Notes: generated by a model not told the origin, from the sequence alone. Shown: positions 22,777 to 54,316, counted from the first letter of the stretch. The stretch is DNA of 64,000 nucleotides from an uncultured Flavobacteriales bacterium (GCA_963922585.1 CAWUIK010000002.1:1342-65341), one strand, 5' to 3'. Numbers and translations are program-made.

Positions 22777-24126
22777 TTAAATCACCATACAAGCGGCAAC
22801 AGTTGCATTAGTCGCTTCATCTATCAAAATAAAACTTCCAGTATTTCTGTTACGAGAGTATTTATCTACAAATAAAGGAACAGTAGTTCTAATGGTGATT
22901 CTAGCAATATCGTTCATCTTAATTTCCTTATCATCCTCCATTCTATGAAGTGTATTGATGTTTAACTTATATGTAATGTTTTTGATTACACATCTTGCAT
23001 CTCTAGAAGTATGTTTAATATGGTATTTTCCATTCATCTGCATTGGTGAATTTCCAAGCCAACACATCATGGCTTCAAGATCTTGAGTGCTCTCTGGTTT
23101 ATTGTTGGGTCTTACAATCATATCTCCCCTACTGATGTCAATTTCATCTTCCAGTCTAATGGTTACAGACATTGGAGCAAATGCTTCTTCTAATTCACCA
23201 TCCATTGTATCTATAGCTGCAATTTTGGATGTAAAGCCAGAAGGTAAAGCCAAAACTTCGTCTCCTTTTTTGAAAACACCACCCGCTACCCTACCAGCAA
23301 AACCTCTATAATCTGGAAATTCTGCAGATTGAGGACGAATCACACTTTGAACAGGAAATCTACAATCAATATGATTGTGGTCCGAAGCAATATGTACATT
23401 TTCTAAAGCATGTAAAAGAGTGCTTCCTTGATACCAATCCATATTTTCTGAACGATTCACAACATTATCTCCTAATAATGCGCTCATTGGTATAAACCTC
23501 ACATCTTTTGTTTCTAATTTTGAACTAAAATCCTCTAAAGTCCTTTTAATTTCTTCATATTTTTCTTTAGAGAAATCTACCAAGTCCATCTTGTTTATAC
23601 AGTATACAATATGTGGAATTCCCAACATAGAAGCAATAAAAGAATGTCGGCAAGTTTGTTCCACAATTCCATAACGTGCGTCTACTAAAATAATCGCTAA
23701 ATTAGCGGTAGAAGCCCCTGTTATCATATTCCTTGTATATTGAATATGCCCAGGTGTATCAGCTATTATAAACTTTCTCTTTGGTGTTGCAAAGTATCTG
23801 TATGCCACATCTATCGTGATTCCTTGTTCTCTTTCAGCTCTCAAGCCGTCAGTAAGCAAAGCCAAGTTGACGCGCTCATCTCCTTTTTTCTCACTTGCTA
23901 ATTCAATAGCTTCCATTTGATCTTCAAAGATTGATTTGGAGTCATATAAAAGCCTTCCAATAAGAGTGCTTTTACCATCATCGACACTTCCAGCGGTTGT
24001 GAACCTAAGTAAGTCCATATCTAAATAACTATTATGTTCGATGGTTGATGGTTGATGGTTGATGGTTGATGTCAGATGGTTGACGGTTGATGTTTTATGT
24101 GGGATGTTGTTATTTTCGTTTTTCAT
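22777..24126 (-). CDS. cysN: sulfate adenylyltransferase subunit 1 (GTPase) CysN
   Basis: AGSVDDGKSTLIGRLL (G1), DTPGH, and NKMD. ATG at 24126 gives a 36-aa extension translated through a heptamer repeat. ATG at 24018 (MDLLRFTTAGSVDDGKS) is an alternative and possibly the native start. Confidence 0.85.
   Translation of the reverse strand: MKNENNNIPHKTSTVNHLTSTINHQPSTIEHNSYLDMDLLRFTTAGSVDDGKSTLIGRLLYDSKSIFEDQMEAIELASEKKGDERVNLALLTDGLRAEREQGITIDVAYRYFATPKRKFIIADTPGHIQYTRNMITGASTANLAIILVDARYGIVEQTCRHSFIASMLGIPHIVYCINKMDLVDFSKEKYEEIKRTLEDFSSKLETKDVRFIPMSALLGDNVVNRSENMDWYQGSTLLHALENVHIASDHNHIDCRFPVQSVIRPQSAEFPDYRGFAGRVAGGVFKKGDEVLALPSGFTSKIAAIDTMDGELEEAFAPMSVTIRLEDEIDISRGDMIVRPNNKPESTQDLEAMMCWLGNSPMQMNGKYHIKHTSRDARCVIKNITYKLNINTLHRMEDDKEIKMNDIARITIRTTVPLFVDKYSRNRNTGSFILIDEATNATVAACMVI
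24040..24095. repeat. heptanucleotide tandem array (GATGGTT)n, 8 units, 4 consecutive perfect
   Basis: Plus strand: GATGGTT x4, GATGTCA, GATGGTT, GACGGTT, GATGTTT. It lies inside the 5' end of the long cysN ORF. Confidence 0.9.
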
Positions 24127-24130
24127 TGTC

Positions 24131-24487
24131 TTATAATTTTTGTTGAGCAGATTTTTTGATTGCAATGAAAATCTTCCGCAATTCAATCGCTTCTATAATT
24201 TGATTATCTATTTTGTTATTCTTTTTGTATAATTCCTTTATTATTCTTAGCCAATAAACTGACTCTCTGGTTTCTTTTGACACAATAGCTATTTTATGAA
24301 TAAAATCTTTTGTACTTTCTGCAGCCTATGACTCTTCATAATTTACTCCAACTGAAGTCGAACATCTTACCAATTGTTTTAGTGTGACAGCATATATTGG
24401 ATTATAATCTAACTCGTTTAGTAATTTTATAGTATTAACACCAAACATAAAAGTTCTTTCCAATAGGTCTTCTGTCTTTTTATTCAT
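24131..24487 (-). pseudogene. four-helix-bundle protein gene (23S rRNA intervening-sequence protein / Avd-like family) with in-frame TAG
   Basis: MNKKTEDLLERTFMFGVNTIKLLNELDYNPIYAVTLKQLVRCSTSVGVNYEES, then TAG (24326-24328), then AAESTKDFIHKIAIVSKETRESVYWLRIIKEL... The (A)NY.E......K.DFI.K..I...E..E..YWL pattern is characteristic of this family. It is absent from the ORF track because of the stop. Confidence 0.6.
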
Positions 24488-24509
24488 TTCTAAAAGTGTT
24501 ATATTTCAT

Positions 24510-24544
24510 TTCCATCGAACATCTCCCATCACGCATTAAACATC
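24510..24544. repeat. degenerate GATGnnn heptamer array on the minus strand
   Basis: Minus strand reads GATGTTT AATGCGT GATGGGA GATGTTC GATGGAA, beginning at the cysD stop codon. This is the opposite orientation to the array at 24040-24095. Confidence 0.7.
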
Positions 24545-25448
24545 AAAAATACCCCTCTTTCTTTCTATCTTCCATTGCAGCCTCACTTCTTTTATCATCA
24601 GAGCGACCTCCTCTTTCTGTAACTCTAGTAGATGAGACTTCTTCTATAATTTCTTCTAAAGTACTTGCGTTACTTGCTACTGCTCCTGTACATGTTGCAT
24701 CTCCAATTGTCCTAAACCTAACGACCATATCTTTTACTTCTTCAGACTCTTTAGTTTCTACAAAGTCAGTTTTTCCCATTATGATTCCGTCTCTCACAAA
24801 ACATTTTCTTGTATGAGAAAAGTATATAGAAGGTATTTCAATTTTCTCAGCCAAAATATATTGCCAAACGTCCATTTCTGTCCAGTTGGAAATTGGGAAA
24901 ACTCTAAAATGTTCTCCCATTTGTTTTTTACCATTAAAGATATTCCATAGTTCAGGTCTTTGGTTTTTTGGATCCCATTGTCCAAATTCATCTCTGTGAG
25001 AAAAGAATCGCTCTTTTGCCCTAGCTTTTTCTTCATCTCTTCTTGCACCACCCATAGCACAATCAAATTTATTATCTTCGATAGCATCTAAAAGTGTAGT
25101 TGTTTGTAATTTATTTCTACTAGCATTAAATCCTCTTTCTTCCACTACCCTACCCTGTTTAATAGAATCTTCAACTGATGCAATAATCAATTTTACACCT
25201 GATTTTGCAATGGCTTCATCTCTAAAGTTTATCGTTTCCGGGAAATTATGTCCAGTATCAACATGCATTAATGGGAAAGGAACTTTGGCAGGATAAAATG
25301 CTTTTTTAGCAAGATGAAAACAGACTATTGAGTCTTTACCACCAGAAAATAATAAAACAGGGTTTTCAAATTGTGCAGCAACTTCTCTTATGATAAATAT
25401 AGCTTCTGCTTCTAATTCCTTTAAATGTGTTAAGTTATAATTACTCAT
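24543..25448 (-). CDS. cysD: sulfate adenylyltransferase subunit 2 CysD
   Basis: 301 aa with a PAPS-reductase/ATP-sulfurylase small-subunit pattern (LLFSGGKDS, C-terminal KKEGYF). Confidence 0.9.
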   Translation of the reverse strand: MSNYNLTHLKELEAEAIFIIREVAAQFENPVLLFSGGKDSIVCFHLAKKAFYPAKVPFPLMHVDTGHNFPETINFRDEAIAKSGVKLIIASVEDSIKQGRVVEERGFNASRNKLQTTTLLDAIEDNKFDCAMGGARRDEEKARAKERFFSHRDEFGQWDPKNQRPELWNIFNGKKQMGEHFRVFPISNWTEMDVWQYILAEKIEIPSIYFSHTRKCFVRDGIIMGKTDFVETKESEEVKDMVVRFRTIGDATCTGAVASNASTLEEIIEEVSSTRVTERGGRSDDKRSEAAMEDRKKEGYF

Positions 25449-26055
25449 TTTTTAATGTAATTTTTTCTAGTATATACTTTAATAAAATTTCTCCGCTCTC
25501 TTCGATAGTTTGATCAACTGTTTTAATAATGATATTTGCTTTATCTGGCACTTCAAAAGGAGCGTCAATTCCTGTAAAGTTCTTTATTTCACCTTTTCTA
25601 GCTTTTGCATATAGACCCTTTACATCTCTTTTTTCACAAATTTCAATGGGTGTATCAATAAAAACTTCAATAAAATCATCTTCACCTATAATATTTCTCG
25701 ATTGATTTCGAATTTCGTTAGTTGGACTTACAAATGAATTTATAGTAATAATTCCACAATTCAGAAATAATTTTGATACTTCGGCAATTCTTCTGATGTT
25801 TTCGGTTCTGTCTGCTTCGCTAAATCCTAAATTGTTATTAATTCCAGTTCTAACATTATCTCCATCTAAAACTTGCGTTAAAAATCCTTTTTCGTGGAGA
25901 TGTCTTTCTAAATATTTAGCAATAGTTGTTTTACCAGACCCAGAAAGTCCAGACATCCAAATCACCTTACTTTTTTGATTCAAAAGCTTCTCTTTATCTT
26001 GTCTTTGAAGTAATTCGTCAAAAACAGAGTAGATATTATTATTCTCTTCTTTCAT
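25441..26055 (-). CDS. cysC: adenylyl-sulfate kinase CysC
   Basis: WMSGLSGSGKTTIA P-loop, GDNVR, and FVSP motifs. Its stop overlaps the cysD start by 8 nt. Confidence 0.9.
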   Translation of the reverse strand: MKEENNNIYSVFDELLQRQDKEKLLNQKSKVIWMSGLSGSGKTTIAKYLERHLHEKGFLTQVLDGDNVRTGINNNLGFSEADRTENIRRIAEVSKLFLNCGIITINSFVSPTNEIRNQSRNIIGEDDFIEVFIDTPIEICEKRDVKGLYAKARKGEIKNFTGIDAPFEVPDKANIIIKTVDQTIEESGEILLKYILEKITLKNE

Positions 26056-26162
26056 AAGAAGGTGCAAATATATATCAAAATGATTTATAAATCTACAAGA
26101 TTGGTAGAGATTTATTTTTTGACTTGAAAAAACATTTTTAGTTTTATGTTATTGTATATTTA

Positions 26163-26324
26163 TATAAAAGTATAAATAAACATAAACATAAAAAAACATA
26201 TTTATAAAAGTACAAAAGTATAAAAACATTAATATATAAAAATATAATAATATAAAAGTATGATAGTATAATAGTATAATAGTAAAAATGCATGCTTATA
26301 TAAATAATTTAAAATACTTTTATA
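26163..26324. repeat. iteron-like array: TATAAAAGTA x3 direct and x1 inverted, plus an ATAGTATA x3 tandem
   Basis: Direct copies lie at 26163-26172, 26203-26212 and 26251-26260. The inverted copy TACTTTTATA is at 26315-26324. The 8-mer tandem is at 26263-26286. All sit in the very AT-rich spacer upstream of the ParA-like gene. Confidence 0.75.
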
Positions 26325-54166: not shown

Positions 54167-54300
54167 TCGGGGTTTGGTGTTCGGGGTTTTTGATTTTCGA
54201 CTTAACGATAAGGGAAGATGGAGGATGTTTGATGTTTGAAGGGAGATGTGTGACTTAAAATTGGAAAACCAAAACCTTTGTGCACTTTGCGGTTAAAACA
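54167..54300. repeat. G-rich short-repeat spacer (TCGGGGTTT x2; GATGnnn heptamers x5; TGCGGTTAAAA motif)
   Basis: TCGGGGTTT lies at 54167-54175 and 54181-54189. Heptamers GATGGAG GATGTTT GATGTTT GAAGGGA GATGTGT lie at 54217-54251. TGCGGTTAAAA lies at 54289-54299 and also at 44984-44994. Confidence 0.6.
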
Positions 54301-54316
54301 CTAAAAACTAATAATA

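Follow-up and report, generated by a model that had tools for sequence, protein, structure and literature searches.

In a stretch of 64,000 nucleotides (nt) of DNA from an uncultured Flavobacteriales bacterium (GCA_963922585.1 CAWUIK010000002.1:1342-65341; hereafter the window, with positions counted from its first letter), the spacer between cysD and cysN of a cysC-cysD-cysN operon is filled completely by a small cassette in sense orientation. It consists of a gene for a four-helix-bundle (FHB) protein of the PF05635/TIGR02436 family, placed between two heptamer arrays that are reverse-complementary to each other, and its 5' array begins on the cysD stop codon. We consider it probable, at about 0.6, that this is a cassette of the type of the intervening sequences (IVSs) of 23S rRNA, here located in the cysDN mRNA, with flanks that are predicted to pair. 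As judged from the comparison of many genomes, FHB genes and genes for GxxExxY proteins colonise operon junctions, the cysD-cysN junction repeatedly, and are usually flanked by inverted arrays of period 7. Altogether, the comparison suggests that repeat-flanked cassettes of this kind are widespread, apparently undescribed passengers in bacterial operons.

A preliminary description, made from the sequence of the window alone, had assigned the gene to the IVS/Avd four-helix-bundle family, and profile searches, in which an in-frame TAG was read as Gln, agree with it. PF05635 was matched with 46.5 bits (curated cut-off 33.8, E = 4.6e-12, profile positions 7-102 of 106 covered) and TIGR02436 with 68.4 bits (cut-off 24, E = 5.6e-19, positions 3-108 of 109). 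The sequence also matched a solved four-helix-bundle structure, PDB 2RLD, over residues 9-114 (E = 4.3e-11), and R41, S45, N49 and E52 of the translation form the RxxxSxxxNxxE motif that is conserved in the family (PMC3936711). The minus-strand frame of 119 codons is, as had been reported, composed of 118 sense codons plus a TAA, with a single in-frame TAG, and the cysD stop codon and the ATG of the conserved CysN core (MDLLRF) lie where they had been placed. The frame is thus not intact, and an independent assembly (L002) has the same call of 53 amino acids. TAG terminates five of the window's 43 long open reading frames (ORFs) and is therefore an ordinary stop codon in this genome. The use of TAG as a sense codon was ruled out on this ground and because the relatives carry CAG or CAA at this position (alignment A1).

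Intact homologues of 118 amino acids were found by protein search (P0001-P0003; 98%, 86% and 82% identity). All sit between cysD and cysN (L003-L007), with intact orthologues at this junction in four further assemblies, and in one of the genomes the surroundings upstream of the operon differ. The window gene differs from its 98% relative by two synonymous exchanges, two Ala-to-Val exchanges beside the RxxxSxxxNxxE motif and one nonsense mutation (CAG to TAG). Between the lineages, dN/dS of the FHB gene is 0.04-0.09, and its dS of 1.1-1.8 is comparable to that of cysD (0.9-2.1), which argues for vertical inheritance of the cassette at the cysD-cysN junction. Judging from these substitution patterns, the FHB protein is functional and under purifying selection in the relatives, the cassette has been in place since before these lineages split, and the window gene became a pseudogene only recently, its ancestor having been a long-standing resident under selection.

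A relative with an assigned role is Avd, the accessory protein of diversity-generating retroelements (bAvd, PDB 4DWL), which shares the four-helix-bundle superfamily with the window protein (PF05635 / cd16375). Avd binds nucleic acid and reverse transcriptase; we know of no catalytic activity of four-helix-bundle proteins. Based on this kinship one could regard the locus as the remnant of a diversity-generating retroelement with the FHB gene as its Avd accessory gene, but we reject this as having next to no probability: Avd genes occur together with a reverse transcriptase and a template/variable repeat, whereas the window gene lies in a metabolic operon between cysD and cysN and was accompanied by neither, and searches of PADLOC and PHROGs gave no match to a defence or phage family. 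In a crude test, no reverse-transcriptase-like YxDD motif was seen in any frame of the 64 kb, and the repeat search returned only the heptamer arrays and no template/variable pair.

A scan for CysD in species-representative genomes yielded 80 loci of 67-81% identity, nearly all from Bacteroidota and a few from other phyla, and cysN follows cysD in 73 of them. The spacer has no inserted ORF in about 61 of these 73 other genomes (gaps mostly of 25-165 nt, seven of 188-316 nt), in agreement with the earlier suggestion that the cassette may be a discrete insert. At seven junctions, a gap of about 490-880 nt holds one small ORF on the sense strand. Four of these inserts encode TIGR02436 proteins unrelated to the window clade (L010, L028, L029, L067), the other three GxxExxY / TIGR04256 nucleases (L013, L030 and L017, the latter frameshifted). 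All but L067 are flanked by inverted tandem arrays of about 7 nt whose unit differs from insert to insert (GAAAnnn/TTTCnnn; CGAAAnn/TTTCGnn; ACGAATn/ATTCGTn; TTGAAAn/TTACAAA). Thus, the same cassette architecture is used by an unrelated protein fold: GxxExxY proteins (TIGR04256 / PF13366) share with the window cassette the junction and the kind of inverted arrays, but are nucleases of PD-(D/E)XK fold, and none was found in the 64-kb window. The three genes lie at L013:3907-4789, L017:3913-4573 and L030:3907-4475, with arrays of the CGAAAnn/TTTCGnn and ACGAATn/ATTCGTn types plus a GTGGCCTCG inverted repeat. A fourth GxxExxY gene, L109:8-385 on the minus strand, has no obvious upstream array. 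Inserts of other kinds were also seen at the junction, namely two antisense genes of 329 and 205 amino acids (L069:3907-5869), a block of about 1.7 kb (L071:3904-5659) and a 224-amino-acid ORF on the sense strand with a signal-peptide-like start (L053:3907-4819).

As far as can be read from these junctions, the ORFs of such cassettes decay and the arrays remain. The spacer L083:3907-4213 is an internally deleted FHB cassette of the L028 type, in which both arrays and FHB residues 73-98 (the last ~26 codons) are kept and the first ~72 codons are lost. Here, the arrays outlast the ORF, which suggests that inverted arrays without an ORF can be relics of cassettes. Spacers without ORF often have period-7 arrays right after the cysD stop codon: a hairpin of GTTATGA/TCATAAC arrays in L040:2061-2120, (GCTGAAA)x17 in L063:3905-4024, (GACAAGG)x6 in L070:3907-3960, (AATTAGG)x4 plus a CAnCCAA array within the cysN coding tail in L027:3907-3990, and a further array in L023:3907-4030.

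The junctions also bear on another explanation, an ordinary operon gene or diverged spacer: the FHB protein would then serve sulfate assimilation, and the repeats would have no significance of their own. Lineages with dS above 1 have indeed kept the gene at the junction, and it is under purifying selection in them. On the other hand, it is missing from the majority of genomes counted above, the same junction elsewhere holds unrelated FHB clades and a nuclease family, the same FHB clade is found in efflux, tRNA-synthetase, heme and lipid operons, and in this strain the gene is knocked out while the operon is retained. We therefore reject this explanation as very improbable.

The heptamer arrays on opposite strands, already noted in the preliminary description, were recovered by TRF (GATGGTT x7.6 at 24040-24092, plus strand) and by motif count (GATGnnn/AATGnnn x5 at 24544-24510, minus strand, inverted relative to the 3' array). 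The perfect inverted repeat of 11 bp is equally real and forms the core of arms of 32-39 nt that are 74-77% complementary. All orthologous cassettes have the 5' array with a variable copy number, and relative to the window, L003 has a 3' array that is 21 nt shorter and L004 one that is 7 nt shorter (alignment A1); from this alignment, the copy number slips between near-identical strains. RNAduplex predicts a flank-flank duplex of 30 pairs (24545-24505 / 24084-24045) with an energy of -32.9 kcal/mol, a value reached by none of 40 shuffles and by one of 391 random genomic segments, and the long-range stem is present in both the minimum free energy (MFE) fold and the centroid fold of 24010-24560(-). 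In six of ten cassettes tested, the z score of the flank-flank duplex was -4 to -7.

Runs of at least three GATGnnn units occur three times in the 64 kb, at both cassette flanks and at 54217-54237. Further copies with the same heptamer flanks, for which the preliminary description had suggested a search, were absent from the 64 kb by tblastn and by the GATGnnn runs, and tblastn with five FHB and GxxExxY queries gave no second cassette copy there. The third run belongs to the hemE-hemF spacer (54167-54316), where a lone G/T-rich array on the sense strand (54211-54241; GATGGAG GATGTTT GATGTTT ... GAGATGT) is of the same GATG type as the 5' array of the cassette and has neither an ORF nor a CATC-type partner.

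The link between FHB genes and period-7 arrays extends beyond cysDN. A metagenome scan with an FHB alignment gave 80 further loci, 64 of them usable, in a sample selected by two peptide patterns from the window clade; the calls of ORF starts and of neighbouring ORFs were heuristic. An array was counted as strict if 17 or more of 21 positions matched at the lag in question, thresholds that are arbitrary but equal for all periods and controls. By this test, 36 of the 64 FHB loci have a period-7 array at most 160 nt from the ORF, compared to none for periods 4, 5, 6, 10 and 11, one for period 8 and two for period 9. Arrays were seen in 60 of 156 FHB flanks versus 7 of 83 other non-ORF segments of the same loci. 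At the cysD loci they occur at lag 7 only (rarely at lag 8), in 17% of the cysD-cysN spacers versus 4% of other non-ORF segments. When reverse-complemented, the 3' unit agrees with the 5' unit at 5.65 of 7 positions, as opposed to 4.0 +/- 0.17 for permuted partners and 3.8 in direct comparison (n = 31, dereplicated). In 30 loci the FHB ORF has the orientation of both its neighbours, and in four it is antisense to both.

The nearest FHB proteins outside the cysDN lineage are ~46-58% identical to that of the window and are encoded in unrelated contexts: sucD|mnmE, OEP|cusB (twice), EF-G-like|HIT, amine oxidase|DUF1365, class II aminoacyl-tRNA synthetase|nuoJ and ccsA|hemA. One protein (P0025) is labelled Fidelibacterota, the others Bacteroidota. 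Most loci of this clade combine an upstream array of GATGGnn type (or of the variant AATGnnn) with a downstream one of CCATCnn or similar type; GATG-type arrays occupy the 5' flank in six other contexts, five of them with a CCAT-type partner downstream. In one OEP|cusB locus (L170) the upstream run is short and only the 3' array reached a relaxed threshold of 15/21, at which L089 and L097 had no downstream array; the arrays of L174 were read by eye. As the repeat unit follows the FHB clade over unrelated sites, ORF and arrays behave as one unit. In L174 (Pedobacter suwonensis, GCA_044754865.1; amine oxidase|DUF1365), the annotated 139-amino-acid 'four helix bundle protein' P0027 (L174:2501-3006) looks damaged by a frameshift, with a spurious N-terminal extension through the 5' array and the C-terminal helix (AEAIELKKIFTSIKISSSK) in another frame past the called stop. 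Flavobacterium columnare is another cultured carrier of an FHB gene (gmk-FHB-nadD).

Another FHB clade, with GAACATC upstream and GATGTTC downstream, has 82-93% DNA identity over 400-700 nt between unrelated genes, which points to recent dispersal. The earlier suggestion of a possibly mobile cassette finds support at the level of the class, with related cassettes of the GATG/CATC array type in at least seven unrelated contexts and this sister family, but not for the window copy, which was inherited with cysD and was not recently mobile. Members of the dispersed family are L104, L109, L116, L127, L136, L145, L146, L158 and L162 (alignment A4); in several copies the arrays are themselves enclosed by an outer inverted repeat, CATAAGCGCTAAGTT / AACTTAGCGCTTATG, and in some the 5' array is duplicated. 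Among viral contigs (IMG/VR), the FHB scan returned two loci only, L176:2300-3050 and L177:2100-3060, both with heptamer arrays: (CCTACAT)x5 downstream in L176 and CTTGAAA-type and GTCTCAA-type arrays on both sides in L177. Single-protein scans of the viral contigs with GxxExxY gave no match.

It is possible, although we think it rather unlikely, that the FHB protein, as an Avd-like pentamer that binds nucleic acid, recognises the arrays as its cognate sites. It would load onto the repeats of its own clade, in RNA or DNA, for autoregulation, protection of the excised RNA or the spread of the arrays, comparable to RAYT transposases and REP. The agreement of repeat unit and FHB clade in unrelated contexts, and apparently in more than one phylum, would fit, as would the strong purifying selection on the protein, the excess of arrays over ORFs and the binding of nucleic acid and reverse transcriptase by Avd. 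However, co-inheritance of ORF and arrays explains the link of clade and unit equally well, the arrays persist after loss of the ORF, and the GxxExxY cassettes share the same kind of arrays, so that these are not specific to one protein fold. This explanation and two others discussed below, a DNA-level role of the arrays and phase variation of cysN, are not mutually exclusive with an IVS-type cassette in the mRNA.

How would such an IVS-type cassette act? It would have no promoter of its own and would be transcribed within the cysCDN mRNA, in which pairing of the arrays may enclose the FHB cistron in an imperfect stem of ~30 bp. This architecture is that cut by RNase III in the 23S IVSs of Coxiella and Leptospira, so the operon transcript is probably processed at the stem. 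Translation of cysN would then restart at the ATG located 4 nt past the FHB stop codon and proceed through the 3' array as a tail of 36 amino acids; the restart would limit polarity on the downstream gene. On its sense strand, the GATG-type 5' array also gives rise to stop/start motifs that overlap (TGATG) as well as to short upstream ORFs (24543-24487). The cysD stop codon overlaps the ATG of one that encodes MFNA, and another (MRDGRCSMEMKYNTFRNE) ends on a TAA that overlaps the start of the FHB ORF. These ORFs could serve as a relay of termination and reinitiation, but not a general one, as the units of other clades have no ATG.

Several points weigh against this picture. The fold of 24010-24560(-) as a whole is no stabler than that of shuffled sequences (z = -0.23), and the antisense arms pair as well as the sense arms, with no G.U signature of selection at the level of the transcript. 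Of the earlier proposal that the flanks can pair in the cysDN transcript, the predicted 30-pair duplex thus stands, but since sense and antisense are equal, a role of the RNA is not separable from one of the DNA. The window stem has an internal loop every 5-6 bp and is less perfect than that of Coxiella. L005, L028 and L029 show only weak pairing, and L067 none. Strict arrays are lacking at 28 of the 64 FHB loci, and heptamer arrays are also found where there is no ORF, as well as at further junctions; they could be a general product of slippage that just provides cassettes with a place to land. No near-isogenic empty site was found among the compared junctions, and the ends of the cassette are thus not defined by one. 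Cleavage of the window stem by RNase III is something that we purely infer, and a cut in the 3' arm would separate the proposed start of cysN from its body.

The equal pairing energies of both strands would be expected if the arrays act at the level of the DNA only, either through recombination or template switching between heptamer arrays, by which the cassette moves or is exchanged, or as terminal inverted repeats (TIRs), with pairing in the mRNA as a by-product. We regard this as a less probable alternative, though not a far-fetched one. Near-identical cassettes lie between unrelated genes, the cysD-cysN junction was colonised independently several times, and the ORF-less arrays at many junctions, including that of GATG type in the hemE-hemF spacer, could be landing pads; moreover, the excess of heptamers in bacteria was attributed to polymerase slippage (PMC4692102). 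Compared with MITEs (miniature transposable elements with inverted repeats) and TIR-bounded elements, the window has the inverted arrays and a single copy in 64 kb, and a dispersed family (82-93%) exists at the level of the class. In contrast, neither a transposase nor a target-site duplication was found for the window cassette, the latter in a comparison whose junctions include no near-isogenic empty site. The cut by RNase III in Coxiella maps to the first heptamer (PMC4990558), and the predominance of the sense orientation (30 versus 4 loci) is not needed by a DNA element, but it is by an ORF transcribed by the host.

An IVS-type cassette within the operon transcript, which we continue to favour, also has to be reconciled with the start of cysN. 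The sequence YL[DN]M[DE]LLRF is conserved with synonymous codon variation, and the upstream YL[DN] is present in nearly all genomes; the synonymous variation ahead of MDLLRF indicates that translation of cysN begins upstream of 24018. The sole in-frame ATG upstream of YLDMDLLRF is at 24126, and a gene caller used the same ATG for a product of 449 amino acids. The 3' array, which translates in frame as MKNENNNIPHKTSTVNHLTSTINHQPSTIEHNSYLD-MDLLRF, therefore probably lies inside the coding tail of cysN and is not purely intergenic. The coordinates given earlier for a cassette between cysD and cysN are right, but its downstream flank is probably shared with cysN. Each of the three frames of CATCAAC yields the same heptapeptide cycle, and none contains a stop codon.

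Similar heptamer-coded tails were seen in L027, L072, L170 and L174. In L170:2876-2960 a cusB-like gene and in L174:3007-3080 a DUF1365 gene apparently start 1-31 nt past the FHB stop codon and read through a CATC-type array. The cusB-like gene appears to start 1 nt after the FHB stop, and its tail, MQTLKYFITSTINHQPLTI..., is almost identical to that of CysN of the window (TSTINHQP).

These tails and the absence of stop codons would suit a contingency switch, in which slippage by 7 nt in the 5' coding tail of cysN toggles CysN or shifts translation to an internal start; we judge this to be quite improbable. The tail keeps the frame of cysN in the window, L003 (-21 nt), L005 and L007 and loses it in L004 (-7 nt). 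L004:762-870 is from a strain near-identical to the window (24126-24018) and has one CATCAAC unit fewer, so that the ATG after the FHB gene is out of frame and runs into a stop after 33 codons. This difference could reflect slippage resembling phase variation or an assembly error, since L004 is a single short contig assembled from reads. In addition, the internal ATG (MDLLRF) could rescue translation, the start of cysN is downstream of the array in most other cassettes, and sulfate assimilation is not a typical phase-variable trait.

Knowledge of ORF-bearing IVSs of rRNA reportedly goes back to the early 1990s (Ralph and McClelland in 1993). Their origin and mobility are still unclear and the function of the FHB protein is unknown (PMC4990558, PMC11270868). 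In the 23S IVS of Coxiella burnetii, described by Warrier et al. in 2016, an FHB (S23p) ORF is enclosed by a terminal inverted-repeat stem of 28 bp, in which RNase III cuts; upstream of the ORF lie GACAGAT heptamers, three in tandem with a count that is strain-dependent, the 5' cut is at the start of the first heptamer, and the ORF is decaying in some strains (PMC4990558). The 23S IVSs of Coxiella, Leptospira and Xanthomonas share with the window cassette the protein family, the ORF sense to the host transcript and the inverted-repeat stem, and that of Coxiella also the strain-variable tandem heptamers beside the ORF and the decay of the ORF while the RNA element persists. Unlike these IVSs, which sit in rRNA and are excised by RNase III, the window cassette is part of a protein-coding operon (cysCDN), and its excision is putative; its predicted stem is more interrupted and overlaps with its 3' arm the probable coding tail of the downstream gene. 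Moreover, the FHB gene of the cassette is under purifying selection in relatives, whereas the Coxiella IVS protein was argued by the authors not to be expressed (PMC4990558).

Heptameric repeats are over-represented in intergenic DNA of bacteria, which was attributed to polymerase slippage with no accepted reason; examples are the GGGAATC repeats of Xanthomonas with 70 inverted pairs and the heptamers of Nostoc and Calothrix (PMC4692102). Like the cassette arrays, these have a period of 7, are intergenic near stop codons, often form inverted pairs and vary in length between relatives; they are transcribed, as the cassette arrays probably are. They were, however, read as G-quadruplex formers and not linked to an enclosed ORF (PMC4692102), whereas the units of the cassettes are not G-tracts and bracket FHB or GxxExxY genes. 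The REP/REPIN elements with RAYT offer an analogy in architecture, a small gene flanked by a short repeat in inverted orientation, with further copies of the repeat dispersed on their own, but they are single palindromes and not tandem heptamer arrays, and there is no relation in sequence or fold. In the literature searched, no paper connects FHB or GxxExxY genes with heptamer arrays or with operon junctions, which does not in itself prove novelty. An FHB gene between cmr3 and cmr2 was treated as Cas-associated in one study and one between gmk and nadD was listed as phage-derived in another; apparently, these genes were read as such because of where they had landed.

The cassettes would join two puzzles, the ORF-bearing IVSs of rRNA and the excess of intergenic heptameric repeats, as the same protein family and arrays are found in operons for mRNA. 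If the arrays are indeed sites for RNase III, many operons in Bacteroidota and other phyla would be cut at such passengers, with consequences for mRNA stoichiometry and gene annotation. It is tempting to speculate further that FHB and GxxExxY proteins are the cognate partners of the heptamer excess, each clade recognising its own 7-nt array, as RNA or DNA, and helping to generate or spread it. The IVSs of rRNA, the operon cassettes and thousands of ORF-less inverted arrays would then be life stages of one transcript-resident selfish element, comparable to RAYT and REP/REPIN. We offer this as a tentative idea that is more probably wrong than right.

The features of the locus are compiled in Table 1.

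Table 1 Features of the cysD-cysN locus in the 64-kb window.
Feature	Position	Strand	Remarks
cysC (APS kinase)	25441..26067	-	first gene of the cysC-cysD-[cassette]-cysN operon; context (ORF list)
cysD (sulfate adenylyltransferase subunit 2, 301 amino acids)	24543..25448	-	ORF list; PF01507 recorded for the identical protein
cysD stop codon TGA	24545-24543	-	overlaps the first heptamer of the 5' array (TTTTGATG)
5' heptamer array	24510..24545	-	sense strand GATGTTT AATGCGT GATGGGA GATGTTC GATGGAA, at 24544-24510
A/T-rich leader, 5' array to FHB start codon	24488..24509	-	sequence
FHB gene (four-helix-bundle, PF05635/TIGR02436), 118 codons + TAA, pseudogene in this strain	24131..24487	-	
Ends of the FHB gene	ATG at 24487, TAA at 24133-24131	-	
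In-frame TAG, FHB codon 54	24326..24328	-	CAG/CAA (Gln) in relatives
Probable cysN start codon	24124..24126	-	4 nt past the FHB stop (TAA GACA ATG); ATG conserved in alignment A1
3' heptamer array, (CATCAAC)n with variants	24034..24100	-	TRF; in-frame reading ...TSTVNHLTSTINHQPSTIEH = probable CysN N-terminal tail
Predicted long-range stem, 5' arm	24505..24545	-	RNAduplex; also MFE and centroid folds
Predicted long-range stem, 3' arm	24045..24084	-	RNAduplex; also MFE and centroid folds
Perfect 11-bp inverted repeat, upstream arm	24512..24522		CCATCGAACAT on the plus strand
Perfect 11-bp inverted repeat, downstream arm	24034..24044		ATGTTCGATGG on the plus strand; sense strand encodes ..T-I-E-H of the probable CysN tail
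cysN (sulfate adenylyltransferase subunit 1, GTPase)	22777..24126	-	conserved core from MDLLRF (ATG, A at 24018)

The window has a G+C content of 32.6%. An Rfam scan of it returned two tRNAs only, with no rRNA and no known RNA family at the locus. A PorP/SprF gene adjoins cysN, and the best matches of CysD are from metagenome-assembled genomes of the Flavobacteriales type, which points to Bacteroidota as the source. Upstream of cysC, a very A/T-rich block of nested tandem repeats (26162-26316; periods 8, 16, 24, 32 and 48, with units such as TATAAAAG) separates the cys operon from a divergent ParA/CbiA-like gene.

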